The notes below the pieces were generated by a model. That model saw nothing but the letters and a program-made list of their open reading frames with translations, was not told where the DNA came from and did no database searches. Below are positions 3,476 to 57,954 of a stretch of DNA of 64,000 nt, piece after piece. The stretch spans positions 12,650 to 76,649 of the forward strand of contig MHBE01000035.1 of NCBI GenBank assembly GCA_001803205.1, in the 5' to 3' direction. The DNA is from Lentisphaerae bacterium GWF2_38_69 (GTDB lineage: Bacteria; Verrucomicrobiota; Lentisphaeria; Victivallales; GWF2-38-69). The position numbers and the translations under genes were made by a program. The stretch's first letter is position 1. Each line of letters starts with the position of its first letter.

Positions 3476-3518
3476 AACAATATCTCCTGGAATTAATTGC
3501 TTGATATTTTTCATTCCT

Positions 3519-4123: not shown

Positions 4124-4134
4124 CATAAAATAAA

Positions 4135-18469: not shown

Positions 18470-18484
18470 ATTCAAATTCTCCTC

Positions 18485-42820: not shown

Positions 42821-43717
42821 ATGAGAAATGTAGTAAGGGTTCTATTCTTTTTAATTCTGACATTTTACTGTGTCTTATCTTATTCCGAACAGGTAAATGT
42901 CTATGTTCTGAACACAGGAGACATACATGAATCTTCGAAATATCTAAAAAAAATAAAATCTTATGTAGATATAACGAGAACCAACCATCCTGGTTGTGTG
43001 ATTTTGCTCGATGCAGGAGACATGCTTACCCAATTCCCTTTTTCAAAATATGTTTCACCACAGGATCGTAAAACCCGTGACTTGGCATCAACTACGCCAA
43101 AGGGTGAAAAGATGCTCGAATGGGCATCAACAATGAAATATGACGCCATACTCATAGGAAATCATGATATGATTGCTGGAGCAAATATTCTGCAGAAGCT
43201 CCTGAACAGATATAACCTTCCTTTAATAGCCGCTAACCTTAGCCATCCCAGCCTGTACCTTTCTAGATACAAAATAGTGCAATTAAACTTTCGTCTTAAA
43301 ACAGGCAAAGCTGTTTCTATCAGGGTCGGAATAATAGGAATATCCGATCAAGACCAGAAGGATTATCATTTCCCGAATAAAGCCGATAAGGAAAAATTAA
43401 AAACTTATCCTGTTTACAATCCAACCATAAATAAGATAATAGATGAAGTTGCTAAACAATCAGACTTTATTATTCTCTTGAGCCATAACTGGGATAATGT
43501 TGACAGAGACTCTGTTTCAGCTCTGAAGAGTAACAAAATATGCGCAATCATCGGCGGGCACTCTCATAAACTTCTAAATGAAAAGGACAATGGAAAAACC
43601 CTAATCAAATCCGGTGTCCACGGAAGCAATGTCGGCTGCACAAAAATAACATGGGATAGCGATGCACATAAAGTATTAACGGTAACTGCCGAGAATAAAC
43701 CGATGAAGGAGGAATAA
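42821..43717 (+). CDS. Secreted metallophosphoesterase (5'-nucleotidase N-terminal domain only)
   Basis: Signal peptide; DIHE, DAGD, GNHD, LSH, GGHSH motifs; no C-terminal 5'-NT domain. Confidence 0.8.
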   Translation: MRNVVRVLFFLILTFYCVLSYSEQVNVYVLNTGDIHESSKYLKKIKSYVDITRTNHPGCVILLDAGDMLTQFPFSKYVSPQDRKTRDLASTTPKGEKMLEWASTMKYDAILIGNHDMIAGANILQKLLNRYNLPLIAANLSHPSLYLSRYKIVQLNFRLKTGKAVSIRVGIIGISDQDQKDYHFPNKADKEKLKTYPVYNPTINKIIDEVAKQSDFIILLSHNWDNVDRDSVSALKSNKICAIIGGHSHKLLNEKDNGKTLIKSGVHGSNVGCTKITWDSDAHKVLTVTAENKPMKEE

Positions 43718-44404
43718 ATGAAGAAATATTTACTTTTCATTTTTATATTATTAACTGGTTTTATAACTTCTGCTCTTGCCGATACATCAGAGCAAATCTA
43801 TTTTTTAGCCATGGATCTGCCGCAGGATACAGATCAAAGCATAGTAAATGACTGTCAGATAAAAATCAGGGAATTAATAAAGAAAAATGCGCCGGAATAT
43901 ACGGACAAAATTCTTTATCACACTCCTGACAATATCCATATCAGCCTCATACGATTTAACGAAATACATCCTGACGCTCTCTTGAGGAATTATATCCAGC
44001 TCTTCAAAAATGATGCCAGGTATCTTCCCGACAGAAACATCGCAAATAAAATAAGAGATGCAAGATTAAATGTAACTCATACTGGTTTTATCGTTTACGA
44101 ATTCCCTGAACCTGTTACTCTCACTAAATTTGTAAATATTCTTTTGAATGACCTTAAGAAAAATAAATTATATTATAAAGATTCTGACTTTAATGAAGGA
44201 GGAAAAATATACCCTCACTTCAGTGTAGGATATTTCAATCCAAACGAAGTCAGCGTTGATACAATGAAAGAGATACTTAAAGGCAAAGTCTCGGCGCCGA
44301 AATGCAACTCTTTTCGCCTTAATGAGTTTATTTTAATGCATTCTGAAAAGCTTACAAAACCTCTTACATACAGCAGAGTCTATACTTTTAAAAAACCTAA
44401 ATAA
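43718..44404 (+). CDS. Secreted 2H phosphoesterase-like protein
   Basis: Signal peptide; two HxS motifs (HISL, PHFSV) about 90 aa apart; YFLAMDLP N-terminal strand. Confidence 0.65.
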   Translation: MKKYLLFIFILLTGFITSALADTSEQIYFLAMDLPQDTDQSIVNDCQIKIRELIKKNAPEYTDKILYHTPDNIHISLIRFNEIHPDALLRNYIQLFKNDARYLPDRNIANKIRDARLNVTHTGFIVYEFPEPVTLTKFVNILLNDLKKNKLYYKDSDFNEGGKIYPHFSVGYFNPNEVSVDTMKEILKGKVSAPKCNSFRLNEFILMHSEKLTKPLTYSRVYTFKKPK

Positions 44405-44446
44405 CGGTTCTGGAGCCTTACAAACTTGTCAGAAAAATACTAAGAT

Positions 44447-45073
44447 ATGAAGCAAAAATCAAAAATACTGAACTTCTCTGAGGATTTTATAAGACTGGAG
44501 TATGTAGAAAGCGCGGAAACCTGCGTCCTAACTGAACAGACGATTGTTGTAAATCTGAGAGACAGGGACTCTAAAAATGATAGTAAACTATTAAAACCCT
44601 TCAAGTCAGCGGTATATTCCAACATAAAATTCAAAAATGTTGAAAACTTGCTTTTCATCACCTTAAAAACCGAATTGTTCTCCAATAAAGGTTTTCCTTT
44701 CTCAAAAGAAATCATGAGTTCATGGAAGCAGGTATATGAAGTTTTCCCTGTTCCAAGTCTTAAGAATATAAAACTCTGGAGGTCGGAGAAAGAAAGGATA
44801 GGAAAGATCGAACTTAATTTGTGGTTTGCATCTGCCGGAACAAACTGCGGAATCCACAACGAACATGATTTCAGTGAAATACATGCACAGATATTCGGTC
44901 TGGGCCGGATTCAGATATTTCATAATAAAGAGTTTTCTTCATTGCATCAGGAGATTTATCTGGGTCCGGGATATACACATGATCCCCTTTGCAGTGAAAC
45001 TAAAATTTATCCTTACCATCAATACTACGCCGACACCGACTGCCTCTGGCTCGCTATAGAAATCTATGACTAG
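44447..45073 (+). CDS. Hypothetical protein with cupin-like C-terminus
   Basis: CGIHNEHDFSEIHAQI.G.G and YPYHQY metal-binding-like motifs. Confidence 0.55.
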   Translation: MKQKSKILNFSEDFIRLEYVESAETCVLTEQTIVVNLRDRDSKNDSKLLKPFKSAVYSNIKFKNVENLLFITLKTELFSNKGFPFSKEIMSSWKQVYEVFPVPSLKNIKLWRSEKERIGKIELNLWFASAGTNCGIHNEHDFSEIHAQIFGLGRIQIFHNKEFSSLHQEIYLGPGYTHDPLCSETKIYPYHQYYADTDCLWLAIEIYD

Positions 45074-45169
45074 CCAGCGTTAAACCAAAATCCTACAGCC
45101 AATTCGGATAAAAAACATTTTATCATCTTGATATTACATTATAAAGCCGTTATATAGTCTACGAACTCT

Positions 45170-45295
45170 CAGTTGCTTTAATATGGGTAAGACCTGTGAG
45201 AATCAGGCACAGTCGCGCTACGGTATTGAAAACTCTCGTTTCTCTAAGTCCGAAAACCATAAGTAACTGTGTTTTGTCGCGTTAACAAAAAGGAG
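45170..45295 (+). promoter_or_regulatory. Cobalamin-type riboswitch (compact variant)
   Basis: CAGTTGCTT/AAGTAACTG closing stem; GGGTAA; CCTG-TGAGAAT-CAGG hairpin; ACAGTCGCGCTACGGTA; B12-box-like AAGTCCGAAAACC; downstream GTCGCG-containing hairpin next to AAGGAG. Confidence 0.65.
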
Positions 45296-45300
45296 AAACT

Positions 45301-45405
45301 ATGACAAAAGCACACTTCCATCTTATCCCGTCACTATTTTCATGTTTGAAACTCACTGCTCTATTCAGTGCTACAACCAACAGCAATAGGAGTGGTATTT
45401 TATGA
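45301..45405 (+). CDS. Putative 34-aa leader peptide (MTKAHFHLIPSLFSCLKLTALFSATTNSNRSGIL)
   Basis: AAGGAG RBS; its TGA overlaps the ATG of the next gene (ATGA). Confidence 0.4.
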   Translation: MTKAHFHLIPSLFSCLKLTALFSATTNSNRSGIL

Positions 45406-46601
45406 ATCGTAAAACTACTTATCTCTCAATGCTCTTTCTATTTTTACTGCCGGTATTTTCTTTTGCACAATTAAGAATCGGAATTATCGGAGACCAGACA
45501 GGTTCCACTGATTTAGCCAAGTCTTATACTGTTTTGAGTGAAGGCTGCCAGGCCATTGCAGCGGCTAATCCTGATATTGTGCTGCATGTGGGCGATATTG
45601 TTGAAAGCTCTCAGAGCGACAGTGACATTAAGGACTCTTTTGAGCAGGCTGTAAGTTATTTAAACGTTATGAACATTCCATGGTATATAACTGCCGGAGA
45701 CCATGATGTGAATCCTCCTAATGATTATACTCCCGGAACAAAAAACACAGAGAAAGCAGATTTATTCCTTAATCTCTTAAGAAAAGAATACTCAAAAAGA
45801 GCTTTATGTGTAATCCCGGAAAAGTTATATTACAGCTTTGATTATCATGGCTATCATTTCATATGCTTATACTCAGAAGATTATCTCAGAACTGATCCTC
45901 GCTGGGGAAATATTTTCATGGATAAAATCTCTGATGAACAATTCAGCTGGCTTGAAGAAGATTTGAATAACTCCGCGTCGGCTAAAGGCATAATTGTCCT
46001 GATTCATCAGCCAATGTGGTATAATATTACAGGATGGAAACGAGTTCATAATCTCCTCAGGAAACATCATGTGCTTGCAGTTATTGCCGGCCATTTTCAC
46101 TACAATCAGGACGAAGGATATACAGACTCAATTCGCTATATCGTTGTAGGTTCGACAGGCGGGACAATCAAAAACGCTTCTGAAAATGCCGGAGGCATAT
46201 ATCACGTGTCACTGCTAACACTAGATGACAATAATAATATTACCATACAATTAATCCCTCTGGAAAATTACAGTTACGATAAGTTTTCCGACAGAGAGAA
46301 TATGGACAGGATACAGGCAATAGATACAATGTTAGGCGGTATAGCATGGACGCCCAATGCCACGATTAAAGGCAATCCTATAGATATTCCCGTAAATATC
46401 TATTCTCTTGCTAAACTAGGTGGATGGCAATTATTGTATAAGAATGTCTCACCAGGTATTGGAGTGGCTATATCTAACTTATCGCTCGTAGAACTGAACA
46501 GCGACACCAATCGGCCTTCTGATCTGCAGGCAATGAAAGTCCAATTCATCAACGAACAAGGCCATACATTGTGGGACTCAATGATTTTTGGTTCAAATTA
46601 A
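45402..46601 (+). CDS. Secreted calcineurin-like metallophosphoesterase
   Basis: Signal peptide; GDQ, HVGDIV, AGDHD, IHQP, AGHFH motifs. Confidence 0.85.
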   Translation: MNRKTTYLSMLFLFLLPVFSFAQLRIGIIGDQTGSTDLAKSYTVLSEGCQAIAAANPDIVLHVGDIVESSQSDSDIKDSFEQAVSYLNVMNIPWYITAGDHDVNPPNDYTPGTKNTEKADLFLNLLRKEYSKRALCVIPEKLYYSFDYHGYHFICLYSEDYLRTDPRWGNIFMDKISDEQFSWLEEDLNNSASAKGIIVLIHQPMWYNITGWKRVHNLLRKHHVLAVIAGHFHYNQDEGYTDSIRYIVVGSTGGTIKNASENAGGIYHVSLLTLDDNNNITIQLIPLENYSYDKFSDRENMDRIQAIDTMLGGIAWTPNATIKGNPIDIPVNIYSLAKLGGWQLLYKNVSPGIGVAISNLSLVELNSDTNRPSDLQAMKVQFINEQGHTLWDSMIFGSN

Positions 46602-46737
46602 CTACTCAATGAGGGAAAATTCAAGTTCCTGCCGTATGATAGGAAACGAACCAGAGAAACAAGATCCAGCGCAGAGCGCTTTGACGACTTGATCGATCTT
46701 AATTTGAGAGAAAATAAACGCAGTTAGATAAGCAACT

Positions 46738-47349
46738 ATGCAATTTATAATTAAAAAGACAGATAAGAAAAATTTCTTCCAAACGGAAAACCTGACAAGA
46801 GAAGCATTCTGGAATATATACAGGCAGGGTTGTGTTGAACATCTGGTGCTGAATAAAATAAGGAAGAGTACAAGTTGTATACAGGAACTTGACCTAATGG
46901 CCGTAGATAAAGAAAAAATCATAGGACACTTGATATCAACCAAAGCAAAAGTCATTTTTTCTGAAAACAACGAAAAGGAAATATTATGCATGGGGCCTAT
47001 TTCCGTATCGCCTGATCTTCAGAAAAAAGGCATCGGTTCAAAGCTGATAGTTAGTTCGGTTTTGATCGCTAAAGAAATGGGTTATAAGGGCATGATACTT
47101 TTCGGAAATCCTGACTACTATCACCGTTTCGGTTTCAGGAATGCAAAAGAGTTTGAAATCACCACAAAAGACGGACAAAACTTCGAACCTTTTATGGCAT
47201 TGGAACTTGATGAAAACTCGTTGAGAGATATAAAAGGAAGATTCATTGAAGATGCTTCCTTTACAACTACGGAAGAAGAACTCGAAGAATTCGAAAAACT
47301 CTTTCCATATAAGAAGAAAGAAAAAACAGCCACGCAGTTCGAACATTAA
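46738..47349 (+). CDS. GNAT family N-acetyltransferase (YhbS-like)
   Basis: LTREAFWN, GPISVSPDLQKKGIGSKL, GNPDYYHRFGF. Confidence 0.9.
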   Translation: MQFIIKKTDKKNFFQTENLTREAFWNIYRQGCVEHLVLNKIRKSTSCIQELDLMAVDKEKIIGHLISTKAKVIFSENNEKEILCMGPISVSPDLQKKGIGSKLIVSSVLIAKEMGYKGMILFGNPDYYHRFGFRNAKEFEITTKDGQNFEPFMALELDENSLRDIKGRFIEDASFTTTEEELEEFEKLFPYKKKEKTATQFEH

Positions 47350-47372
47350 ATTAAGCTAAAAACATCTTTATA

Positions 47373-48140
47373 ATGACGAAGAACGCTTCAGACAGAAAAG
47401 ATAAGCAAACTAGGCTTATCCTCTCCATACCGTACAAAATCACTTCGGCAGACACCGATATGAATTTGCGTCTGAGGATGAGCGCCTTGTCCAACTTGCT
47501 TATACAATCTGCCATAAATTCCGCTGAGACTTTGCGAGCCGGATTTTTAGACCTTGAAAAACAAAACTTGTTCTGGGTGCTTAGCAGAATGACCATTGAG
47601 ATAGACAAACCTCTGGTCTGGAATGACTCTTTAGAAGTGGAAACTTGGCCCAAAGATGTAAAGAAGATTTTTTATCTGAGGGATTTTCTAGTTAGAAACA
47701 ATGAACAGAACATAGTTGCGAAAGCCACATCAGGATGGCTCGCGATCGATAAGTTAACAAAACGCCCGCAAACATTAAAACAAGAGTTATCAGATATCTT
47801 CAGCGAACTGAAAGACAGACACGCCATAAACGCCCTCCCCGAAAAGCTCTTTCCTGTAAAAGAAGGAGAAATTTCGGAACTGAAAACCACTTATTATGAC
47901 ATCGATCTGAACGGCCATGTAACATCAATTCGTTATATCGACTGGATGATGGACACATTTCCTGTTGAATTCCATAAGAACAATTATCCGAAGAAAGTGT
48001 CCATAAACTACCAGAACGAAACTAGGATTAATGAAACAGTTCAGATAACAAGAAATACAATAGACGGAAAGACTTTTTTATTCGAAGGAATAAATAGAAC
48101 CAGAAACCTTGCTTCATTTCACGGCAAGATCTTTTTTTAA
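47373..48140 (+). CDS. Acyl-ACP thioesterase
   Basis: WVLSRM, VETWP, DIDLNGHV...YIDW motifs. Confidence 0.88.
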   Translation: MTKNASDRKDKQTRLILSIPYKITSADTDMNLRLRMSALSNLLIQSAINSAETLRAGFLDLEKQNLFWVLSRMTIEIDKPLVWNDSLEVETWPKDVKKIFYLRDFLVRNNEQNIVAKATSGWLAIDKLTKRPQTLKQELSDIFSELKDRHAINALPEKLFPVKEGEISELKTTYYDIDLNGHVTSIRYIDWMMDTFPVEFHKNNYPKKVSINYQNETRINETVQITRNTIDGKTFLFEGINRTRNLASFHGKIFF

Positions 48141-48172
48141 TCATCCTGACAAGCATAGAAGAAGAGGAATAC

Positions 48173-49009
48173 ATGAAATTAAATGTACTGATAGACAACA
48201 ATACTTTGATAGACAGATATTTCCTTGGTGAGCCAGGTGTATCATATCTGATTCAGGACGAGGACAAACAGATATTATTCGATACAGGATATTCCAATAC
48301 CTTCATCACTAATGCCCGGAAGTTAAATTTAAATCTCATGCAAAGCGATTTTATAGTTCTTTCCCATGGACATATGGATCATACATGGGGACTTGACGGC
48401 CTTATCAAATTATATACAGAAGCAAAGATAGAATCTCTGCCTTACCAAAAGCCAACTCTGGTAACTCATCCTGAAACATTTCAAACAAAAACAGCAGATG
48501 GAATTGATATCGGCTGCATCCTTACAGAATCGATGCTGCATCAGCATTTTGAAATGAAGCTATCAAAGAAACCTTTCCATCTGACAGACAGACTGATTTT
48601 TCTTGGAGAGATAGAAAGATTAAATGATTTTGAAAACAAAGAACCAGTCGGAAAAGTCCATTTCAATAGCAAGACTGAAGATGATTTTTTACTTGACGAC
48701 TCGGCTTTAGCATATAAAGGGAAGAACGGGCTAGTAATCATCACCGGATGCTCTCACTCAGGAATATGCAACATTATTCAATACGCCAAAAAAGTCTGCA
48801 ATGAAGATAAAGTCATTGATGTGATAGGAGGTTTTCATCTGATGAAGCCTTCGAAAAAACAACTTAGCGGAACTCTCGATTATTTTAAAAAATTGAAAGC
48901 CAAAGAAATACACGCATGCCATTGCGTTGATCTTACTTCAAAAATCTCTCTCTCAAAAGCGGCAAATTTGAAAGATGTTGGAGTCGGATTATCACTGAAT
49001 TATAAATAG
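48173..49009 (+). CDS. Metallo-beta-lactamase fold hydrolase
   Basis: LFDTG, LSHGHMDHTWGL, ITGCSHSG, IGGFHL, ACHC. Confidence 0.88.
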   Translation: MKLNVLIDNNTLIDRYFLGEPGVSYLIQDEDKQILFDTGYSNTFITNARKLNLNLMQSDFIVLSHGHMDHTWGLDGLIKLYTEAKIESLPYQKPTLVTHPETFQTKTADGIDIGCILTESMLHQHFEMKLSKKPFHLTDRLIFLGEIERLNDFENKEPVGKVHFNSKTEDDFLLDDSALAYKGKNGLVIITGCSHSGICNIIQYAKKVCNEDKVIDVIGGFHLMKPSKKQLSGTLDYFKKLKAKEIHACHCVDLTSKISLSKAANLKDVGVGLSLNYK

Positions 49010-49012
49010 TCG

Positions 49013-49777
49013 TTAGAGATGCAGCCTGCCAATATAGACATCTGTCCGATATTCCATTCTCACCATTCCTCCTGTATTGTATATATCGAAAAGTTCTTTC
49101 AGTTTCGCGGTAACTTTTAATCTATCTTCAGTTCCTTCTTTTGGAGTATATGAAGAGGAGAAGAGTCTTCCTTTCAGGCCTTCGAAATTAAAAACCTGAA
49201 ATTGCGGAAAATGAGCGGTTTTCATATCCTTATCGCCAAGAAAACCTGCTACCAAGTCTGAAGAAATATTCTTATGGCTGACCTTGCAGTACTCAGGCAT
49301 TGAATGCAAAAGTTCTTCATAAGCTTCGAGGAAGGGTTTTCCTTTTGTCGCCCTGTCATTCCATACAAATAGAACCCATTTGGGTTGCTTTAATATGCGC
49401 CAAAATTCAATTTTAGCCTTGGGTTTATCAAACCAGTGAAACGCCTGAAAAGCTGTCACTATATCTATGGTTTTATCAGGCAAACATGTGCTCTCGGCAC
49501 ATCCGTTCACACAGTGGAATAACGGGTTGTCTTGAAGAGACTCCTTGGCTGCTTTTTGCATATCGGAATTCGGCTCAACTGCATAAACACTGCATTTGAA
49601 TCCGTCAAGGAGGAGTTTTGTTGATATTCCTGTTCCGGAGCCTATGTCAGCAATGCTCCAATTCTCTTTCACAGGGCAATTTTCTCTAATGAATTCTATC
49701 AAATCAGGAGGATAAGTAGGCCTGAACTTTTTGTAATCGTCAGCTCTGGCTGAAAATCTTGTTTTTGAATCTTCCAT
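49013..49777 (-). CDS. Class I SAM-dependent methyltransferase
   Basis: RFS..ADDYKKFRPTYP, ADIGSGTGIS, AVEPN, AFQAFHWFD. Confidence 0.9.
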   Translation of the reverse strand: MEDSKTRFSARADDYKKFRPTYPPDLIEFIRENCPVKENWSIADIGSGTGISTKLLLDGFKCSVYAVEPNSDMQKAAKESLQDNPLFHCVNGCAESTCLPDKTIDIVTAFQAFHWFDKPKAKIEFWRILKQPKWVLFVWNDRATKGKPFLEAYEELLHSMPEYCKVSHKNISSDLVAGFLGDKDMKTAHFPQFQVFNFEGLKGRLFSSSYTPKEGTEDRLKVTAKLKELFDIYNTGGMVRMEYRTDVYIGRLHL

Positions 49778-49797
49778 ACTTTTAAAAAATGAAAGTA

Positions 49798-50670
49798 TTA
49801 AATGATACAACTAATTATAAGCAAAGAGAGTATAGCAACATATTGGATGAGAAAACTTCTTATTGTTGGAAGAAAGAGGGCCGGCTTCTGATAGGTTTTC
49901 ATTCCTTTCAGGAAAGATAAAACTGCGGCAGGAATACATAGGAGGGAAAAACAGTTAAGCCAGTGTATATCTCCTGACAATATGAACACAATCAAAATAA
50001 CGAAGTTAATCATATTAATGGTAAAAGCCAGTATGAGCGCCCTCCTCTGCCCCAATCTGACACATATGTTGCGTTTTCCGACTAATGAATCCTGAATGAA
50101 ATCAGGAATCTCATTTAAAACAGCAATCGCAAATAAAAGCAATGCCGGAACTAAAGAAATAAAAAACACTTTAACTTCTAATTGCCTGGTTTGAACAAAA
50201 TAGCTCCCGCCAACCATGAAAGGACCATATGCAAGAGCGATTATAAGTTCGCCAAGCCCCCTATAGGTAAGCTTTATCGGAGGACACAGATAAAAGAGCG
50301 CCGCAAGAAAACCGAAAAAGGCAAATGCAATTATCGCAAATCCTATTGTATAGGTAAGATATAGCCCTATCAGAAAAGCTATAAAAAAAGCCCCTACCCC
50401 AACAATAAAAGTTTTGAGAGTAATGGGCTTAGGTTCGCATTGGAAAATTCTGTCAGTTCCAAGCTGCCAGTCAAAATATTCGTTAAAGCTTTCTACTCCG
50501 AGCAAACAAAAAAGAATACCGACAAACCCGACAAGGAACAAATAAAAATGAAACTCTCCCTGCAGAAAAAAAGCGAGAGCCGCCCCCAGCAGGTAAGGGA
50601 AAAGCCCTGCGATAAGCATAAATCTGTATCTGCAGAGCTTTATAAGATTCTTTATCAGACTTGTTTCCAT
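49798..50670 (-). CDS. UbiA/MenA-family prenyltransferase
   Basis: Asp-rich motifs NEYFD...GTD and NEIPDFIQDSLVGKR; Y..PP.KL.YRGLGE; multiple TM helices. Confidence 0.88.
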   Translation of the reverse strand: METSLIKNLIKLCRYRFMLIAGLFPYLLGAALAFFLQGEFHFYLFLVGFVGILFCLLGVESFNEYFDWQLGTDRIFQCEPKPITLKTFIVGVGAFFIAFLIGLYLTYTIGFAIIAFAFFGFLAALFYLCPPIKLTYRGLGELIIALAYGPFMVGGSYFVQTRQLEVKVFFISLVPALLLFAIAVLNEIPDFIQDSLVGKRNICVRLGQRRALILAFTINMINFVILIVFILSGDIHWLNCFSLLCIPAAVLSFLKGMKTYQKPALFLPTIRSFLIQYVAILSLLIISCII

Positions 50671-51638
50671 GTATTGGCTTCTTTGAGAAGCTCCGGGTTT
50701 TCGATGACCCTATTAGTAAATTCGACTACTTCGGGTTTTCTCCATGCTTTTTTATATTTTTCCCAAAGTTCCGCAAGGGAATTCTCACGCAAATTACCAC
50801 AGACAAAAGGAAGAGGTCCGATGAGTTTAACATTGCCGTTGGGTATGACAAGCAAGCTTGCCGCCGGATGATGCAAACGGTACCTAAGCTCTTCGATAAC
50901 ATCATACGGATAATAGTATATCTTCATCTTTCCTTCATATTTGAGCTGTTTTTCCTGAAGCACCTTGAAGAAAGCCTCATATTCAGCCTGGGACGGGTTG
51001 AGCTTATCCCAGTTCTGGGCTGCGCGGCCGATACGCATGATTTTCCCTGTATAAAAACCGTATATGCCCATTTCATAGGCCATTTCGATCATATCGCCTG
51101 TTTCATGAATATTGAATTTTGTAGGAACAAAAACTATTTCAGTATTCACTCCGGCATCCACAAGGAGTCTGCATGCATTGAGTGTTTTTTCATAATCCCC
51201 GTTGACTCTCATTGTTTCAAAAGTCTGTGGGGTTCTACCGTCCACACTAATCTGAACAGATCTGAAGCCTAGTTCTGCAAAGCGTCTGGCCTCTTCAGGG
51301 CCTATAAAATGGCCGTTGGTCTCGACTTTCAGGCTTATATTATTTTTCCTGAAGAATTCGCATATCTCGAAGAAATCAGGATGAAGCATTGGTTCGCCTC
51401 CGGATATAGCGACATAAGGGATATTCAAAGCTGCAATCTGATTGCAGAAATCTTTAACTTCTTCTTTATTGAGCTCATTTTCCATTGTATGCCCTGCTTC
51501 TTCGCAGCAATGCAGGCATTCCAGATTGCAAATAGAATTCAATTGCCATGCAATAAAAAGAGGAGCATCGTAATCTTCGAAATTAAATCCTGTAAGATTG
51601 ATTTCTTCTTTTGTAGGGCGGAGTTTATTTTCTATCAT
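50655..51638 (-). CDS. Radical SAM peptide-maturase-like enzyme (PqqE/MftC-like) with Cys-poor SPASM/twitch-like tail
   Basis: CNLECLHC (CxxxCxxC), SGGEP, ETNG, VQISVDG; tail LLVIPNGNVK...GNLRENSLAELW. Confidence 0.88.
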   Translation of the reverse strand: MIENKLRPTKEEINLTGFNFEDYDAPLFIAWQLNSICNLECLHCCEEAGHTMENELNKEEVKDFCNQIAALNIPYVAISGGEPMLHPDFFEICEFFRKNNISLKVETNGHFIGPEEARRFAELGFRSVQISVDGRTPQTFETMRVNGDYEKTLNACRLLVDAGVNTEIVFVPTKFNIHETGDMIEMAYEMGIYGFYTGKIMRIGRAAQNWDKLNPSQAEYEAFFKVLQEKQLKYEGKMKIYYYPYDVIEELRYRLHHPAASLLVIPNGNVKLIGPLPFVCGNLRENSLAELWEKYKKAWRKPEVVEFTNRVIENPELLKEANTWKQV

Positions 51639-51898
51639 TATTCAGTTTCTCCTGCAATAATACCGTTCTGTGTAAGAGATGCTATATATTCATTTACATC
51701 TTTTTGTATCACTGCCTTATCGCAATTATATATTTCAGCAAGCTCTCTGACTATCTCATCAGCAGCCTTGCCTTCGCCAATTCCTTTTAAGATATCAGCG
51801 CCGATATCATTGGTAATAAAAAGTTTCTCCTTAAGAGTTTCGAATATCACGGCGCCAAACTTCTCAGTACGCCACTTGACATGTCTTTTAAATTCCAT
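51638..51898 (-). CDS. PqqD/MftB-like RiPP recognition element
   Basis: VKWRTEKFGAVIFE..NDIGADIL..IVRELAEIY..DVNEYIASLTQNGII; GGAGG RBS before ATG 51898. Confidence 0.85.
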   Translation of the reverse strand: MEFKRHVKWRTEKFGAVIFETLKEKLFITNDIGADILKGIGEGKAADEIVRELAEIYNCDKAVIQKDVNEYIASLTQNGIIAGETE

Positions 51899-51941
51899 CC
51901 CTAGACCTCCGATGGTAATTGAAAGTTCATTTTTTATATGC

Positions 51942-51973
51942 AAAAAAATCCGGCAAAAAATCTATTTGCCGGA
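51942..51973 (-). terminator. Terminator/attenuator between precursor gene and maturases
   Basis: TCCGGCAAA/TTTGCCGGA 9-bp stem followed by U7 on the minus strand. Confidence 0.75.
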
Positions 51974-51999
51974 AATTATTAAATTTACAAATGTGTAAA

Positions 52000-52143
52000 T
52001 CAGGTAAACCTGATATAAGGCTGTGCCATAACGCGCTCTGAAACATCTTCCAGAGTAGGTTTGACCCATTCTTTCTTCCTGATTGTATGCTCTTTGGTCA
52101 GTGATTCTTTTTTCTGTTTCAATTCAGTTTTAATTTTGTCCAT
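52000..52143 (-). CDS. Putative RiPP precursor peptide, 47 aa (MDKIKTELKQKKESLTKEHTIRKKEWVKPTLEDVSERVMAQPYIRFT)
   Basis: Translated by hand (below the ORF track cut-off); AAGGGG RBS; WxxPxL RRE-binding leader motif; directly upstream of the PqqD-like gene. Confidence 0.8.
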   Translation of the reverse strand: MDKIKTELKQKKESLTKEHTIRKKEWVKPTLEDVSERVMAQPYIRFT

Positions 52144-52581
52144 ATAAGACCCCTTATACTAATAAATTGTCTTTGCACTTCCAGTCGCAGCTAATCTTCT
52201 TATCGTTTCTATAGAATAAGCATATTAAAGTACAAATCAACACGGGCACTAAATTATTGCCTCTAAATCGGATTCATATAGATTTCATCCTACCGGCTAA
52301 GAGTCTTTTAACATATAAATATTATGACAATTAATCAATTCCTGCCGACCCTGTCTTTTTAACTTGAGTTGTTTCGTTATAATAGTAAAATAATTTTTTA
52401 ATCAAAGCCCATTAAGATAAGCTAAAATCATGCATATTGGAATCTTGGATATGACCGGTATTCAACCAGGTTTTCCTAATAGTATTTATGTCGTCATGAA
52501 TGCCTTTATGCTTGCTCAGATAATAATCACATCTATTTATCTAAGAAAGAACTGGTGGTTAAAACTAAAGGACTAATAACA

Positions 52582-53499
52582 ATGGATCTAAATAGAATAA
52601 ATCTCAATTTACTGGTCGTGCTTGACGCTATCATAGAGGAAAAGAATATCTCTCTTGCAGCTAAAAGACTGAACCTGACCCAGCCCGCTGTCAGCCACAT
52701 GCTAAAACATCTCAGGACAATTCTTGATGATGATCTTATACTAAGAGGCCCGTTCAACAAGATGATCCTGACAAAAAAGGCTCAGGATATGAAAATGCCG
52801 GTCAGGAAAGTACTAAACGACATATCCGGTATTTTTACGGAAACAAAATACTTTGACCCCGAATATGATAAGTTCACCTTTACTATGGGCATGCCAGACA
52901 TTGCATCTGTCCTTTTAATCCCGAAATTAAATACGGCTATAGGCAACTTTTCCGGCAATGTAAAGATCAAGATAAAAAACATCCTTGACATAACAAGTTA
53001 TGAAGACATGATACATGACAATCTTGACCTGGCTATTGGGAACTTTTCTATTTCCTCACAAAATATAATGTCTGAGAGTTTATTCTCCACAGAACTGGTC
53101 TGTGTCGCGGACAAATCCCATGAAGTGTTCAAAAGCAAAAAGCTTACCTTAGATAAGTTTTTAGAATTCCCTCATCTGCAGCTTGTTTACAGAGAAGAGT
53201 TTCAAACCTCTTATGATGAGATTATCGGAAAGGCAACTGAATGCTCCAGGAAAATATTAATAACAATTCCCAATATAATGACAGCTCTCCATTCTTTAAA
53301 AAATTCCAACAGCCTGTGCATTGCCCATAAAAATATTGCAGAGAAGTTTTCAACTCTTCTGGATTTGAATTACAGAGACCTTCCTTTCAACACGCCTATA
53401 ATGAATTATTACCTATATTGGAAGAGAGAAGACAATGCCTCTAAACCTTTCACATGGATGAAAAAGTTGATTATGGATAGTTTCAGCAGTCATAGATAA
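52582..53499 (+). CDS. LysR-family transcriptional regulator
   Basis: NLNLLVVLDAI..ISLAAKRLNLTQPAVSH HTH; LDLAIG substrate-binding domain. Confidence 0.92.
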   Translation: MDLNRINLNLLVVLDAIIEEKNISLAAKRLNLTQPAVSHMLKHLRTILDDDLILRGPFNKMILTKKAQDMKMPVRKVLNDISGIFTETKYFDPEYDKFTFTMGMPDIASVLLIPKLNTAIGNFSGNVKIKIKNILDITSYEDMIHDNLDLAIGNFSISSQNIMSESLFSTELVCVADKSHEVFKSKKLTLDKFLEFPHLQLVYREEFQTSYDEIIGKATECSRKILITIPNIMTALHSLKNSNSLCIAHKNIAEKFSTLLDLNYRDLPFNTPIMNYYLYWKREDNASKPFTWMKKLIMDSFSSHR

Positions 53500-53548
53500 C
53501 CTATTAATTAATGCTATTTATCAAGAATATTATCATATACGGAACTAC

Positions 53549-53773
53549 ATGAATATAAAAAAAACTTATGTTATTACCGGAGGAAGCAGCGGCATAGTGC
53601 TTTCGACATTGAAAATACTTTTGAAAGAGGGAAACAACTGTACTGCTTTTTGCAGAAATCCTGAACCATTAAATACTCTAGCTGAAACTATACTCTTTCT
53701 GTTGTCTGATAAATCAAAATATATTACAGCTGCAAATATCATTGTGGATGGTGGTCTTAACAGTATTAGATAA
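53549..53773 (+). pseudogene. Internally deleted short-chain dehydrogenase (SDR)
   Basis: N-terminal VITGGSSGI fused almost directly to C-terminal FLLSDKSKYIT..IIVDGG; catalytic core missing. Confidence 0.75.
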
Positions 53774-53779
53774 ACGCAA

Positions 53780-55006
53780 TTGAAAATCAGTTATATAGAA
53801 AATCAATATTTAAATAAGAAAACCGTTTTGGGGAAGCTAGTGTCCGACTTAATTTTAAAAAGAAATCCTCTGCAGAAAACTTCGCTGATTTTTAACTTGT
53901 TTTTTATTGTGATATTCTCAGGAATAGCTTCTGTTTCTTTTGGAAATGAAGCATCCAATGAGTTTTTGATCGTGCCTTTAAGAGGCAATACCCTTGATAT
54001 CCACTTTGTTAATATAACTAATACTGAAGTGAAGATAACTCCTTCGATAGCTAGTTCAAAAGATATACCTGCTCCAGATAAAAGGAATCTGCTCTTTATC
54101 CCTAATTCAACAATGGCATCTGGAGAAAAACTTATGCCTCTAGATTTAACTCTTGACAAAGCGCTTATTACAACACTAAAAGGAAAGCCTAAACTCGTGG
54201 TCAGAAAATTTATCCAGAGCATCATGGTCTGTAACAATATCTCATCCTATTCTGAGCAAAAGAAAAACTATAGCTACAACTCAGAAGGAAAGTTCTGTCC
54301 TTACAGTTCATATATGTGGACAAACGGAACTCAAACATCTGATGACGGACTTCATGCCTACAAAAATGCAATGGATGAAATTAACACTCTTAAATATTCA
54401 TTCAATGCTTCGGTAAATGAGATAAGGGAGTTAAACCTTGAACTAAGATTTTCAGCAAAGAGTCATATTAGAACTTCTCAAACCAATGAAGTATCCGCGT
54501 ATATAAAACGATTGACTATTATTAATGACACTGCTTCTCATATTGCTGCTATTACATCACTTACCGCAGGAATATTGTCCATACCTACAAATCCTCTCTC
54601 AGGAAGTTTCTCGACAGTATCAGGAGCAGCATGGGAAATTCAGGCCACAGTCCAAACAATGATGGATCACTATAATCTTCAGGACAGATACGATACTGAA
54701 GCTAAAGGTCATTCCTGGCTCTCTTCGCCTTTTGATGTAATTATAAATCCGGTTAACTGCTTCATAAAAGACAGAAAAACCAATGTTACATATTCCGCTG
54801 AGGCAGATGAAAGAAATGGACAAGTAACTTTTTATCTTGGCAATGATGTTAAGCCTCAAAGCATCATTTTTCAGTTTTTTACGACGAACAAAGGAGATCT
54901 ATATATCTTTATCGTCTCCGGTTCCTTGCTGGCCAAAGGGGAACTGGATAAAGTTTTACCCGGAAGCGAATTTACTCATTTAAATAAGGCTGGAGATATA
55001 CCATGA
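53780..55006 (+). CDS. Hypothetical exported protein
   Basis: 408-aa ORF with a signal/TM segment; no recognised family; start uncertain. Confidence 0.55.
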   Translation: MKISYIENQYLNKKTVLGKLVSDLILKRNPLQKTSLIFNLFFIVIFSGIASVSFGNEASNEFLIVPLRGNTLDIHFVNITNTEVKITPSIASSKDIPAPDKRNLLFIPNSTMASGEKLMPLDLTLDKALITTLKGKPKLVVRKFIQSIMVCNNISSYSEQKKNYSYNSEGKFCPYSSYMWTNGTQTSDDGLHAYKNAMDEINTLKYSFNASVNEIRELNLELRFSAKSHIRTSQTNEVSAYIKRLTIINDTASHIAAITSLTAGILSIPTNPLSGSFSTVSGAAWEIQATVQTMMDHYNLQDRYDTEAKGHSWLSSPFDVIINPVNCFIKDRKTNVTYSAEADERNGQVTFYLGNDVKPQSIIFQFFTTNKGDLYIFIVSGSLLAKGELDKVLPGSEFTHLNKAGDIP

Positions 55007-56568
55007 GAAACTCTATGCCATGCATCAGATTTTATATCTGTCTCCTGTTTTTTCTTATTTTTTCTTTGGATATATATGCAGGCCGGCTTATTCTGACAAT
55101 TAAAAATGAAAGGAATGAAGATATACATGCAACTTTTGATGGCTCTAACTTTATAAACAGTTTCGATCCCTATAGAATAGACGCAAATTCAGTTGCTTCT
55201 CTTAATTTGGGATTTGCTGATGGGTACTTCATAAAATTCAATATTTGCGCTTCTGATGAAACAGCAATTAGCTCTTTTGCCGTAGTCAATAATTATCAAC
55301 TAGAGCACAGCTATGATAATTATATTCCAGGGTCAGGCTCACTTGATAACTTCGGTTGCTATTTCAGCAGTTCCAACACTGTCAGGATATCTGACATTTC
55401 GGGCTTCAGAAACCTTTCATGGCTGCCATTTTGTTCATATGATGAAGCCACACTTAACATTGTTATTGGCAAACCAGCGAAGATATCTTCCAAGGATGAT
55501 GATGCTCTGGAATTTCCGATCTTTGCAGTAGCTGAAAGTAATTATGCTGATGAAATAGCCTTAAACAGCGGCTCTGCTTCTGACTCAATCCATATAAAAG
55601 ATAAAGAATTTAATCTTCAGAAATGGGGTATTACCGGCGAATCAAAACTGAATAATGTTTCTTTTCATGATGGAGATAAAGAATCAAGATGGGCTGATAT
55701 CATCATTCATAACTTTACGCCTGATTCGTATTTCCTTTACTCTCTTGTCCAGATATACAATTCCGATTGCATTTCCTTCTCCTATAAAGACAATTTAAAA
55801 AATGCACCTGTTTTATTTTATCCTCCATTTACTCAGATGAGAGGTCCTGGTTTTAGGTTTTCTGCCTGGAAAACAGAGGCAGGCGAACTTAAGACTTATC
55901 CTGACAAAGATTCTGTTCAGAAAGATGAATTTGTTTTGCTTATAGGTAAAATATCGGAAGGCACCGAAAATACATTTGAATATCTTCCTGTAAGGATTAC
56001 TGCCTCAGCTAACGCCGGCTATTCAATGGAAAACGGAGTAAATATCGAAGCTTACGAAGAGTATGTTTATAGGGTTAAATTCACTCCTGTTAACGCCGGA
56101 TTCAAAATAACTCTTCCGGAGAATGACAACTATGTTAATCAGATAAGAATACCCACCGGATCCGACGCAGAGAATCTATTCTCAATAGTTAGAATGAACG
56201 ATATTGCCATAAAAACAGTTTCCAATAGCAAGCAAGCAAATACAAAAACAAGGACTTCTAATTCAATAATGTATGAAATATCCGGCATTTCTCCCAACAC
56301 TGGAAAAAAATATTTTTACAAACTGATACTTTCAGCTCCACCGTTTCTCGCCGGCAATACGCCAGGAATTTATTCCCCTGAGAAGAGAGTATCCGACGAT
56401 TTAAAAATAGGCAATTATTTAAGATATCCCGTACATCTTTATATAATGGAAACAGATAACTCAGGTTCAGAAAAATATAAGATAAATGAACATGTTGCCA
56501 CCGAACTGCCTGATTTCCCGGCAGGCAGAATTGAGTATTTCATTTCCGACGACCTGAGCAGGCTATAA
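55003..56568 (+). CDS. Hypothetical secreted beta-rich protein
   Basis: 521-aa ORF, signal peptide, ATGA overlap with the previous gene, GGAGA RBS. Confidence 0.6.
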   Translation: MRNSMPCIRFYICLLFFLIFSLDIYAGRLILTIKNERNEDIHATFDGSNFINSFDPYRIDANSVASLNLGFADGYFIKFNICASDETAISSFAVVNNYQLEHSYDNYIPGSGSLDNFGCYFSSSNTVRISDISGFRNLSWLPFCSYDEATLNIVIGKPAKISSKDDDALEFPIFAVAESNYADEIALNSGSASDSIHIKDKEFNLQKWGITGESKLNNVSFHDGDKESRWADIIIHNFTPDSYFLYSLVQIYNSDCISFSYKDNLKNAPVLFYPPFTQMRGPGFRFSAWKTEAGELKTYPDKDSVQKDEFVLLIGKISEGTENTFEYLPVRITASANAGYSMENGVNIEAYEEYVYRVKFTPVNAGFKITLPENDNYVNQIRIPTGSDAENLFSIVRMNDIAIKTVSNSKQANTKTRTSNSIMYEISGISPNTGKKYFYKLILSAPPFLAGNTPGIYSPEKRVSDDLKIGNYLRYPVHLYIMETDNSGSEKYKINEHVATELPDFPAGRIEYFISDDLSRL

Positions 56569-56605
56569 TATTAAAAAAGACAAAGGCACTGAGACACAAA
56601 GTTTT

Positions 56606-56701
56606 TCTGTCAGCGAATTAAGCGAATTTGTCGAAGTTAGGTATATAATAGGTTATTTCGATGCTTTTAGTTAATTCGTTTAATTTGTGTAATTCGTTGA
56701 T
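56606..56701. repeat. 96-bp dispersed repeat (copy 2)
   Basis: Matches 7738-7833 with one mismatch. Confidence 0.9.
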
Positions 56702-56815
56702 AACAGTCCGTCGTCAACAACCAGACCTGCTTCTGTTAGAAAAACAAAAGCGGCGATAAATCACAGCACTCCAAAGATATGCAATTAATGAGCCCATTTT
56801 CTATATTATTAAATC

Positions 56816-56886
56816 GTAGCACGGGCGTCTCGCCCGTGGGGGCCAATCGGCACTCTGTTATGCCATGGGCGAGACGCCCATGGTAC
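56816..56886. repeat. REPIN: inverted pair of GTAG/GTAC-footed REPs (CACGGGCGTCTCGCCCGTG)
   Basis: GTAGCACGGGCGTCTCGCCCGTG and inverted CATGGGCGAGACGCCCATGGTAC. Confidence 0.8.
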
Positions 56887-57089
56887 GGTGGAAAAGCAGA
56901 AACGATAAGAGAGCGGTTTAGTTTGAGTGTTGTTTGCATTGTTTTTATTTTTTAACCACTCTTCAGGAAGCAATTCACGAAGGTTTTTGTGTGGGTGATT
57001 ATAGAGTCTTCTAAAAATCTCAAGTTTCTGGTTTGGGAATTATTTATAATCAACTAACATATAAGCTATTAGCATTTTTATGATTCATA

Positions 57090-57177
57090 ATGTGTCGCCG
57101 CTCCCTTGCAGGGAATTCCCTGTGAGAGAGCTTAAATGAATTGCAAATTATTAACCACGGGCTTACACCCGTGGCTA
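57090..57177 (+). repeat. Dispersed ~88-bp palindromic repeat, homologous to 41282-41369
   Basis: Contains CCACGGG-CTTACA-CCCGTGG hairpin; aligns to the reverse complement of 41282-41369. Confidence 0.7.
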
Positions 57178-57317
57178 GAATATTAAGGAGCTGTAACAGA
57201 ATAACATATTTAAATTAATCTGAAACGAAATGATATGAGTTGGATATAATTGATTCCCTGGTGCTAGTAGTGCGTGTTTTTTTTAACCATGCGCCTTAGC
57301 ATGGCTCCGTAAACAGA

Positions 57318-57373
57318 GTAGACGCAATATCTAGCGTCTCATCAAAACCAGCCGCAAAATGTTGCGGCTCTAC
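57318..57373. repeat. REPIN: inverted pair of GTAG-footed REPs related to the RAYT-flanking family
   Basis: GTAGACGCAATATCTAGCGTCTC and, on minus, GTAGAGCCGCAACATTTTGCGGC. Confidence 0.7.
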
Positions 57374-57454
57374 ATTGCGGACAGCTTTACTACCATGCCC
57401 AATAGCAAGTCGGAGATCTGTCCCAAGTGCTTAGAAACCAATTTATTTTTTTCC

Positions 57455-57730
57455 TTACAAAGCTTCATCCAGTCCCCAGCTGTTAGGGCAGTATTCTAGT
57501 GATTGGATTATATATTGCCTGTTAACGATTTTTTCAAAAGACATCGGGTCTTTGCCCTGTTTGAAGAAGCCGCCCCATGCCCAGCCGTGCTTTGTCATTA
57601 TTTTGAAAACTTTGTCATTTTCATGTATCATAGCCTTATTATCCAAAGTTCTGTCCAAATATTTTTCTGCTCCTTCCGGATAGATTTTTCCTCCGGCAAC
57701 TGGCGATGGGTTATAAAAAGGATTTAAATA
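57455..57730 (-). pseudogene. C-terminal fragment of an M15-family (D-Ala-D-Ala carboxypeptidase-like) peptidase
   Basis: NPFYNP..YPEGAEKYLDR..HGWAWGG..KDPMSFEK; N-terminal catalytic part absent. Confidence 0.6.
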
Positions 57731-57954
57731 GCATAGAATTCAACCAAATTTATAGTGTTTTTCATAATATCCTTTTCCTCTTGTAATAAATTCGTGACTA
57801 AAACACTTGTTAAGCTTATAATATTAAAGGCTAATATTAAAAAATCTCAACAATTTATACCCAAAGGGTATTTTAATATTGGTTTTATTTCGCACATATG
57901 AACTCATTTTGTGTAAATATTTTTCGAAAATCATTTCGCTTTAAGTATAACAAT

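Follow-up and report, generated by a model that had tools for sequence, protein, structure and literature searches.

The DNA analysed here, referred to as the window, is a stretch of 64,000 nucleotides (nt) from Lentisphaerae bacterium GWF2_38_69 (assembly GCA_001803205.1, contig MHBE01000035.1, positions 12,650 to 76,649 of the forward strand). On its minus strand, between positions 49013 and 52143, lies an operon in which a gene for a 47-amino-acid (aa) peptide is followed by genes for a PqqD-family protein, an enzyme of the radical S-adenosylmethionine (SAM) type, a UbiA-superfamily prenyltransferase and a methyltransferase. The first four of these genes are a real, conserved cassette and not a local accident, and we consider them here as a candidate system for the synthesis of a peptide-derived, prenylated membrane cofactor. 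The genes of the operon are the following (open reading frame, ORF; peptide made by ribosomes and modified after its translation, RiPP; RiPP recognition element, RRE).

52000-52143, minus strand: precursor peptide gene, 47 aa (ORF call; no Pfam match)
51638-51943, minus strand: PqqD-family chaperone, RRE (PF05402, 44.8 bits, cut-off 23.4)
50655-51638, minus strand: radical SAM enzyme, placed in the SPASM/twitch peptide-maturase lineage (PF04055, 82.5 bits)
49798-50670, minus strand: UbiA-superfamily, MenA/UBIAD1-like membrane prenyltransferase (PF01040, 71.9 bits, cut-off 34.2)
49013-49810, minus strand: class I SAM-dependent methyltransferase (PF08241, Methyltransf_11, 57.3 bits)

ORF calling recovered at these coordinates the five co-oriented minus-strand ORFs that an earlier note, made from the sequence alone, had described. 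The assignment of four of them to the PqqD, radical SAM, UbiA and methyltransferase families was upheld by their Pfam scores, and the overlaps reported between genes are real, amounting to 1 nt between the PqqD and radical SAM genes and 16 nt between the radical SAM and UbiA genes. When the five proteins were scanned against NCBIfam (release June 2026), no model reached its curated cut-off. Furthermore, no paper on a cassette of UbiA, PqqD, radical SAM and peptide genes was found in the literature searched, which mostly lies outside the subscription journals. The cassette is apparently undescribed so far, and the statement of the earlier note that no characterized pathway has this gene set still stands on both counts.

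Conservation and distribution of the cassette

A profile built from 22 relatives of the radical SAM enzyme was used to search contigs representing one genome per species, which yielded 75 loci; ORFs were called in all of them and searched with the five proteins from the window. A UbiA gene follows the radical SAM gene in 70 of the 75 loci, so the linkage of these two genes, on which the earlier proposal depended, is conserved. A PqqD gene is present in 68 loci and a conserved peptide, which that proposal also demanded, in 62, and all four genes occur together in 59; the methyltransferase was found in none. In 13 of the 16 loci that lack a gene, the contig breaks off no more than about 600 bases from where that gene would lie. 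The genuine exceptions are L048, the distant L081 and L052, the last being an additional copy in a metagenome-assembled genome (MAG) whose other locus, L036, is a full cassette.

The usual gene order is peptide-PqqD-radical SAM-UbiA, with genes often overlapping, and some loci contain a tandem duplicate of the radical SAM gene. A rearranged form, PqqD-radical SAM-UbiA-radical SAM-peptide-radical SAM, is found in loci labelled Proteobacteria and in one labelled Streptomycetaceae. In these loci (L074 to L077, L080, L083 and L084), which have three radical SAM paralogues, the peptide gene lies between the second and the third, and the radical SAM enzymes are 39 to 47% identical to that of the window. 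Since the order of the genes is altered in these loci, the gene set survives rearrangement.

The cassette was seen in no fewer than 75 genomes, counted at the level of species, and they carry the labels Planctomycetota, Omnitrophota, Elusimicrobia, Acidobacteriota, Nitrospirota, Desulfobacterota, Proteobacteria, Bacillota and two archaeal groups, and the carriers are mostly anaerobes. The cassette is rare, being present in 1 of 151 sampled genomes in the phylum of genome G052 (G052 itself) and in 3 of 81 genomes in the order of genome G048. Among 2227 scored candidates, 1471 relatives of the radical SAM enzyme had E values of 1e-20 or below; the best 120 of these 1471, with the window protein excluded, are 64 to 73% identical to it and, where named, are Omnitrophota, Planctomycetota, Dethiobacter, Thermodesulfobacteriota, Aminicenantia and Nitrospirota MAGs. 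Identity at this level across phyla looks like a constraint of the housekeeping type.

The host genome (G000), which is 95% complete, was compared with those of 40 relatives, and no close relative of the cassette radical SAM enzyme was found in any of them (best identity, 35%). The nearest cassette radical SAM enzymes, at 70 to 73% identity, carry WOR-3, Omnitrophota and other labels, and those of Lentisphaerae-labelled loci are more distant (54 to 55%), which points to a sideways acquisition of the cassette by the host.

The precursor peptide

The peptide consists of a variable, Lys-rich N terminus, a conserved leader motif, W-x-K-P-x-L-E-D-V-S, and an invariant C-terminal core, MAQPYIRFT, which holds one Tyr and one Phe. 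Across all peptides the consensus reads W-x-[KT]-P-x-L-E-D-V-S-x-x-[VI], with MAQPYIRFT and the stop codon coming next, and residues W26, P29, V34, S35 and M39 to T47 are invariant in the 30 peptides that were aligned. All 63 peptides, from 62 loci and the window, share the same last nine residues. The final 27 coding bases of these 63 genes, however, come in 59 distinct DNA versions that specify a single amino acid sequence, and the pairwise identity of the core codons is 97.6% at positions 1 and 2 and 50.5% at position 3. This pattern directly indicates translation of the peptide ORF and a need for every core residue; the core is under purifying selection far beyond what chance would produce. 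There is one precursor gene per locus, and in the window the sequence AAGGGG is located 7 nt upstream of its ATG. Cross-phylum conservation of this strength is typical of cofactor precursors, such as PqqA and MftA, and not of antibiotics.

Standard annotation hardly sees the peptide, because gene callers seldom call its ORF: only 16 relatives are recorded among 5.8 billion proteins, and the sole named one is a "hypothetical protein." NCBIfam models gave no match to the peptide at E values of 0.01 or below. When the search was extended to an E value of 10, the leader region showed a weak likeness, below the cut-off, to the leader model of the lasso peptide paeninodin (E value, 0.033), and PqqA models gave no match even then. 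The W-x-K-P start and the spacing to the Tyr are reminiscent of PqqA, a likeness that was set aside, as no model supports it.

The PqqD-family protein and the radical SAM enzyme

Based on an alignment with 29 relatives, the PqqD-family protein probably starts at Met16 (position 51898), behind a GGAGG sequence, and is then 86 aa long. Its best NCBIfam matches are the models for the lasso peptide PqqD, WgkC, the GeoRSP PqqD and PqqD, all of them below cut-off, with the PqqD model TIGR03859 reaching 23.9 bits (cut-off, 46). The predicted complex of this protein with the peptide scored 0.49, compared with 0.18 for the best of three controls; the mark used for such predictions is reached by 58 of 80 solved complexes and by 2 of 110 mismatched pairs, and at scores of 0.60 or below it is reached by only 7 of the 80 solved complexes and by both of the mismatched pairs that pass. 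The runs agree in at least 82% of the contacts, and the predicted local distance difference test (pLDDT) value of the partner is at least 54. The score may reflect a likeness to solved complexes of PqqD proteins with leader peptides and not binding as such, and we take the predicted complex as weak support for an interaction.

In the radical SAM enzyme, the motif that binds the SAM cluster, C37-x3-C41-x2-C44, is invariant in all 22 aligned sequences, and the only other conserved cysteines in that alignment are C45, C156 and C280. The seven SPASM cysteines are absent, and there is no match to a SPASM model in Pfam. The best NCBIfam matches are AhbD (133 bits; cut-off, 500), MftC (131.3 bits; cut-off, 265) and NirJ2, all below cut-off, as is the PqqE model TIGR02109 (80.7 bits; cut-off, 381.35). 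The models for NirJ2, GeoRSP and PqqE align over their full length, up to about residue 294 of the enzyme. An AlphaFold (AF2) model (pLDDT, 87.5; predicted template modelling score, 0.85) was compared with known structures using Foldseek, and the top matches were SkfB (6efn; E value, 1e-14), PqqE (6c8v; rank 2), SuiB (5v1s) and anSME (4k36), all of which are peptide maturases. Based on this predicted fold and the full-length alignments, we place the enzyme in the SPASM lineage despite the missing cysteines. The PqqD-family protein and the radical SAM enzyme had earlier been likened to MftB and MftC, a comparison that held in part: MftC is the second-best match of the radical SAM enzyme, though below cut-off, and no MftB model was among the six PqqD-type matches.

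The UbiA-family prenyltransferase

Both Asp-rich motifs are intact in the cassette UbiA proteins and are laid out as in the true MenA of G006, a relative of the host from the same family; the conserved residues are N63, E64, D67 through G71 and D73 in one part and N186, D190, D194 and K199 in another. The predicted structure of the window protein (AF2; pLDDT, 89.6) is all-helical, and its top match in the PDB is human UBIAD1 (8djk_B; template modelling scores, 0.73/0.75), with digeranylgeranylglyceryl phosphate synthase and archaeal UbiA structures also among the matches. UBIAD1 is the human menaquinone-4 synthase. The best NCBIfam matches are MenA models, all below cut-off, including TIGR00751 (62.4 bits; cut-off, 102.15) and NF004751 (101.8 bits; cut-off, 264).

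Cassette UbiA proteins from different phyla are 39 to 53% identical to that of the window, and the true MenA of G006 is 26% identical to it. A tree was made from 29 cassette UbiA proteins, 20 other UbiA-family proteins from cassette genomes, the MenA of G006 and the UbiA of G002, a relative of the same genus as the host. All 29 cassette tips fall into one clade (support, 0.853), which stands beside a MenA-like clade and outside the clade that holds the true MenA. The scores below the MenA cut-offs, the low identity and the separate clade together dispose of the concern, raised when the locus was first described, that the gene might be the ordinary MenA of the organism.

Genomic neighbours and quinone context

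The ORFs neighbouring the cassette were clustered for all 75 loci. The commonest neighbour is a polyprenyl synthetase (PF00348, 217.8 bits), found in 17 loci and directly after the UbiA gene in 10 of them, whose best NCBIfam matches, none of which reaches its cut-off, are to heptaprenyl, solanesyl and octaprenyl diphosphate synthases. The second recurring neighbour, present in 11 loci, is an nqr-like NADH:quinone reductase operon that encodes an NqrA-like protein with an added tail for two [4Fe-4S] clusters together with NqrB, NqrC, NqrD, NqrE and NqrF, the last scoring 291 bits against a cut-off of 295. This operon lies directly before the cassette in seven loci (L025, L028, L034, L038, L039, L042 and L058), and nqrF directly follows the cassette UbiA gene in four (L064, L066, L067 and L071). 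At L064 and L066 further nqr genes stand ahead of the cassette, which is therefore located inside the operon, between nqrE and nqrF. Both the nqr and the polyprenyl synthase genes are on the same strand as the cassette, are separated from it by gaps of a few bases and occur under several phylum labels. The other genes downstream of the cassette are unrelated to one another.

Some of these operons are Rnf/Nqr hybrids, combining an NqrA-like protein that has an RnfC-like C-terminal domain for two [4Fe-4S] clusters with a true NqrF-type subunit (L025, L028 at 152-5353, L038, L039, L042, L058, L064 and L066). In five loci (L064 at 9034-9489, L025, L042, L058 and L066) nqrF is directly followed by a gene for a protein of about 150 aa without a Pfam or NCBIfam match, which may be an accessory factor.

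The closest named homologues of the host's urocanate hydratase belong to Victivallales MAGs (84 and 80% identity), and the window encodes an NADH-dependent [FeFe] hydrogenase; the host is therefore probably an anaerobic, fermenting member of the Lentisphaerae. Its genome contains a single UbiA-family gene, that of the cassette. Searches of G000 revealed no MqnA or MqnD and no NqrB or RnfD, and the matches to MenB (91 bits; cut-off, 343), MenD (70 bits; cut-off, 244) and UbiE/MenG were all below cut-off. An intact locus of G000 encodes a flavoprotein, a polyprenyl synthase, CydA and CydB. Cytochrome bd is found in four of the 40 relatives. In G006 a polyprenyl synthase gene is accompanied by cydABDC, a MenA gene (305 bits; cut-off, 264) and a MenC gene, with MenB and MenD further along the contig, and in G008, also of the same family, cyd is on the same contig as MenB and MenD. 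The polyprenyl synthases beside the cyd genes of G000 and G006 are 42% identical. G000 thus retains the quinol oxidase and the tail synthase without the men genes, and its only prenyltransferase belongs to a cassette seen in none of the 40 relatives. According to a 2026 survey (PMC13386864), lateral transfer often replaces one of the two menaquinone pathways by the other, and certain genomes lack both; the words "radical SAM" do not occur in that survey.

Proposed pathway

From the genes and their families, their linkage, the selection on the peptide and the genomic context, we infer both the chemical steps and the function of the product. The PqqD-type chaperone would hold the 47-aa precursor by its W-x-K-P-x-L leader, and the radical SAM enzyme, as a member of the peptide-maturase lineage, would modify the core MAQPYIRFT. 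The MenA/UBIAD1-like UbiA would then attach a long polyprenyl chain to the modified aromatic moiety, either still on the peptide or already released from it. The outcome would be a membrane-anchored, peptide-derived cofactor, most likely redox active and quinone-like, which might serve respiratory enzymes such as the nqr-like NADH:quinone reductases and cytochrome bd. The cassette of this host is joined to a lineage-specific methyltransferase, which could possibly add a methyl group. We hold it to be an evenly balanced question whether this reading, of a horizontally mobile four-gene cassette that makes a peptide-derived, prenylated and probably quinone-like membrane cofactor, is correct as a whole. 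The earlier note had proposed either a membrane-anchored, quinone-like carrier or a lipidated RiPP, and as far as computation goes this idea is sustained: of the damaging results that it had named, none of those open to computation was found. The polyprenyl synthase, the nqr-like operons and the situation of cytochrome bd in the host favour the quinone-like carrier of the two. Within the reading of a prenylated membrane cofactor, the chances for and against a respiratory, quinone-like role are roughly equal.

A more far-reaching version would see the cassette as a third way, this one ribosomal, of making a respiratory isoprenoid quinone or a lipid that resembles one, which in the host would have replaced the men pathway. 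The radical SAM enzyme would cut the head group out of the Tyr- and Phe-containing core without the use of oxygen, the MenA-like enzyme would prenylate it, and nqr-like complexes and cytochrome bd would use the product; the relatives of the same family that keep men genes beside cyd would fit such a replacement. We regard this version as conceivable but doubtful.

Several observations weigh against a quinone-like cofactor. A Tyr residue carries one oxygen, and a true quinone needs further steps; no hydroxylase, protease or oxidase is conserved with the cassette among the neighbour clusters of the 75 loci, and a route from a Tyr-containing peptide to a quinone therefore cannot be written. The lack of the seven SPASM cysteines in the radical SAM enzyme is unusual for peptide cross-linking enzymes. 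G002 has cytochrome bd and has neither men genes nor the cassette, and genomes with MenA only, as in some streptococci and lactococci, could scavenge a head group from outside. With regard to the cassette genomes, MenB over its cut-off is present in 0 of 40, and 4 of 40 carry MqnA/D as well as the cassette. The absence of menaquinone pathways was rejected as evidence outside G000, since the background lacks them likewise: in the order of G048, MqnA/D is missing from 66 of 81 genomes and is present in none of the three cassette carriers versus 15 of the 78 others. Cytochrome bd was also rejected as a general partner of the cassette, as only 13 of 40 cassette genomes have it. Furthermore, UbiA-family matches beyond that of the cassette occur in 31 of 40 cassette genomes. 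Half of the 20 sampled paralogues, from 10 cassette genomes, fall into the MenA-like sister clade, and 6 of 10 scanned paralogues pass the cut-off of TIGR00751, with none passing those of the NF00475x models; outside G000 the cassette UbiA is therefore not the sole candidate for a quinone prenyltransferase. Proteobacterial cassette genomes, in addition, hold a high-scoring canonical UbiA. Finally, absences and taxon labels are soft because most of the genomes are MAGs.

Alternative explanations

The gene set could also make a natural product of the lipidated RiPP kind, for instance a prenylated antimicrobial, signal or membrane-active peptide, that has no cofactor role and whose respiratory neighbours are coincidental. 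Peptide, RRE and radical SAM enzyme together form a layout that is standard for RiPPs, cyanobactins and ComX are known examples of prenylated RiPPs, and the distribution of the cassette is patchy and mobile; moreover, 64 of 75 loci are without an nqr neighbour and 58 of 75 without a polyprenyl synthase in the stretch examined. The cores of antimicrobial RiPPs usually vary, however, and this one is the same in 63 of 63 peptides across many phyla, with one precursor gene at each locus. Transporters, leader proteases and immunity genes recur in no neighbour cluster, and the radical SAM enzyme, at 64 to 73% identity across phyla, resembles a housekeeping protein. The nqr and long-chain polyprenyl synthase genes, for their part, recur under several phylum labels on the strand of the cassette and within a few bases of it. 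With these points taken together, a natural product of this kind seems unlikely to us. It is equally necessary to consider that the cassette may serve one process through two products, with the peptide, PqqD protein and radical SAM enzyme making a soluble cofactor like PQQ (pyrroloquinoline quinone) or mycofactocin and the UbiA prenylating an aromatic compound that is not a peptide. The head group would be naphthoate-like or benzoate-like, possibly scavenged or made with the help of the cofactor. Motifs and predicted fold of the UbiA are MenA/UBIAD1-like, and the characterized members of that family take small aromatic acceptors; we know of no UbiA-family enzyme that takes a peptide, and the literature searched on UbiA in combination with RiPP terms, mostly outside the subscription journals, shows no such case. 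The matches of the radical SAM enzyme to MftC and PqqE also speak for this reading. Against this, the UbiA gene directly follows the radical SAM gene in nearly every locus, often overlapping it, and is kept in the rearranged proteobacterial form; the cassette UbiA proteins form a clade of their own and are not ordinary MenA; G000 is without any known pathway to a head group; and later enzymes of the PQQ or mycofactocin type recur in none of the loci. We consider such a division into two products unlikely as well.

An incidental adjacency, with a UbiA gene that is simply the organism's usual MenA and a small ORF that is no genuine gene, could draw on the MenA models being the best NCBIfam matches of the UbiA and on the small ORF being so rarely called that 16 relatives are found among 5.8 billion proteins. 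It is refuted by the linkage of all four genes in 59 of 75 loci, by the codon pattern, which shows selection on the peptide, and by the wide distance to the MenA cut-offs and the separate UbiA clade, and we give it next to no chance of being correct.

If the product of the proposed cofactor pathway is a membrane electron carrier, it would be a new class among the isoprenoid quinones, would explain how some anaerobes that have quinone-dependent enzymes get by with neither the men nor the futalosine pathway, and would mean that a redox head group can be made without oxygen. If it is a prenylated peptide with another role, this would still be the first RiPP prenylation of the UbiA type. The system, with its four genes, is compact and directly testable.

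Comparison with known systems

Few cofactors are known to be carved from ribosomal peptides, PQQ and mycofactocin being examples, and to our knowledge none of them is lipid anchored or uses a UbiA-type prenyltransferase. By analogy, the cassette may work like these two systems, with a peptide, an RRE, a radical SAM enzyme and a tailoring transferase. As neither the curated cut-offs nor the precursor motifs are matched, it is a member of neither.

With PQQ synthesis (PqqA, PqqD and PqqE), the cassette shares a short, Tyr-containing precursor that is invariant, a PqqD chaperone and a radical SAM enzyme with a predicted PqqE-like fold; a quinone as the end product is a proposed analogy. It differs in that the matches to the PqqE and PqqD models fall well short of the cut-offs and PqqA models do not match. 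PqqA has the motif E-x3-Y, whereas the cassette peptide has Met, not Glu, at the fourth position ahead of its Tyr. In addition, PqqB, PqqC and PqqF recur in none of the neighbour clusters, and the PQQ pathway contains no membrane prenyltransferase, which the cassette has. The later steps of PQQ synthesis require O2, and the carriers of the cassette are mostly anaerobes.

Mycofactocin synthesis (MftA, MftB and MftC) likewise combines an RRE and a radical SAM enzyme with a peptide that has a Tyr near its C terminus, and the moiety derived from this Tyr is decorated by the glycosyltransferase MftF, the place of which the cassette prenyltransferase would occupy. In contrast to this system, the cassette radical SAM enzyme stays below the MftC cut-off and is without the seven SPASM cysteines, the PqqD-family protein has no MftB match, and no MftD-like or MftE-like gene recurs. 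The MftA precursor ends in Val-Tyr, and MftC performs a C-terminal decarboxylation. The cassette peptide ends in Y-I-R-F-T, with the Tyr not at the C terminus, and a decarboxylation of the MftC type therefore cannot apply as such.

MenA and UBIAD1 are the polyprenyltransferases that act on 1,4-dihydroxy-2-naphthoate or menadiol in menaquinone synthesis. The cassette UbiA shares with them the superfamily, the pattern of the Asp-rich motifs, the predicted UBIAD1 fold, a sister position in the tree and the frequent adjacency of a long-chain polyprenyl diphosphate synthase. It differs in its linkage to peptide, PqqD and radical SAM genes and not to men or mqn genes, and also in the 26% identity, the scores below cut-off with all MenA models and the separate clade already described. 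Prenylated RiPPs (those of the cyanobactin F-family enzymes PagF and LynF, and ComX with its ComQ) have in common with the cassette the prenylation of an aromatic residue in a ribosomal peptide, which is here a proposal. PagF, LynF and ComQ are soluble proteins of the ABBA type or like polyprenyl synthases and use C5 to C15 donors, whereas the cassette enzyme is an integral membrane protein of the UbiA type, its gene is often beside that of a long-chain synthase, and the peptide core is invariant.

Other UbiA genes

The flanks of the ten MenA-like paralogues have no neighbour cluster in common and provide no clue to a common pathway. A stand-alone MenA-like gene was observed at L107 to L114 (G042, G043, G044, G046, G047, G058 and G060), in cassette genomes that yielded no MenB or MqnA/D.

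A different arrangement was seen in G002, in which a gene for a MenA-like UbiA, 28% identical to that of the window, overlaps one for a full-length SPASM radical SAM enzyme (L088, G002:C5, 2311-4406, minus strand). The latter reaches 267 bits with AhbD and 260 bits with TIGR04053, scores that fall short of the respective cut-offs. Neither a PqqD gene nor a small conserved peptide is visible at this pair, which may be a second uncharacterized combination of UbiA and radical SAM enzymes.

Methyltransferase, hairpin, regulator and flanking DNA

The methyltransferase is, judged from sequence, a generic class I enzyme outside the conserved cassette, and its absence from all 75 loci fits the earlier remark that it might be incidental. 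Its best NCBIfam match is BioC, with 41.4 bits (cut-off, 184.95), and the MenG/UbiE model TIGR01934 gives 23.3 bits (cut-off, 158.35). If the gene starts at TTG 49810, it overlaps the UbiA gene by 13 nt. ATG 49777, which leaves a gap of 20 nt, is the likelier start, because relatives align only from residue 10 to 17 onward. Away from the cassette, 3 of 40 cassette genomes encode a homologue (36 to 44% identity), as does 1 of the 7 relatives that were searched. Two of the homologous genes, at G077:C10:50408-51160 and G078:C4:3629-4381 (36 to 38% identity, Betaproteobacteria labels), adjoin cydA. These neighbours, in two genomes only, hint at a link of the methyltransferase with the quinol oxidase over pure accident.

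Two further features accompany the operon.

51939-51973, minus strand: terminator- or attenuator-like hairpin with a T run, between the peptide gene and the PqqD gene (fold scan)
52555-53499, plus strand: LysR-family regulator, divergent from the operon (PF00126 and PF03466)

The fold scan confirmed the terminator-like hairpin noticed earlier between the peptide and PqqD genes; it runs from 51973 to 51949 and has 9 pairs, 5 of them G-C, and a loop of 7, followed by a T run. With the PqqD start at Met16 (51898), the hairpin is intergenic. Terminator-like sites number 7 in the region from 48800 to 52700, against 2.6 ± 1.5 in shuffled sequences, and the z value of the intergenic fold is -2.2 in the window, the median across the tested cassette intergenic regions being -0.8. 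A role as a conserved attenuator of the cassette was rejected, with 12 of 44 intergenic regions satisfying a crude terminator rule, and we take the hairpin as a local feature. A promoter scan was uninformative (8 sites versus 10.5 ± 3.4 in shuffled sequences). Based on its divergent arrangement, the LysR-family regulator may control the operon of this host. It is not conserved with the cassette, since the neighbour clusters of the 75 loci contain no recurring counterpart.

When the DNA from 43000 to 58000 was compared with the two congeneric genomes, the part from 43.3 to 46.6 kb alone gave matches, at scattered places, and there were none between 46.6 and 57 kb. These matches do not mark the boundaries of an insertion. 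No tRNA gene is present, and no integrase or transposase gene is located near the cassette. The stretch from 46600 to 57000 is a variable region that contains, besides the cassette and the LysR gene, genes for GNAT, acyl-acyl carrier protein thioesterase and metallo-β-lactamase-fold proteins. Two overlapping ORFs of 408 and 521 aa without a Pfam match occupy positions 53780 to 56568. Elsewhere in the window, positions 16703 to 20251 of the minus strand encode the NADH-dependent hydrogenase, a group A6 [FeFe] enzyme (791 bits; cut-off, 765), beside a NuoF-like subunit.

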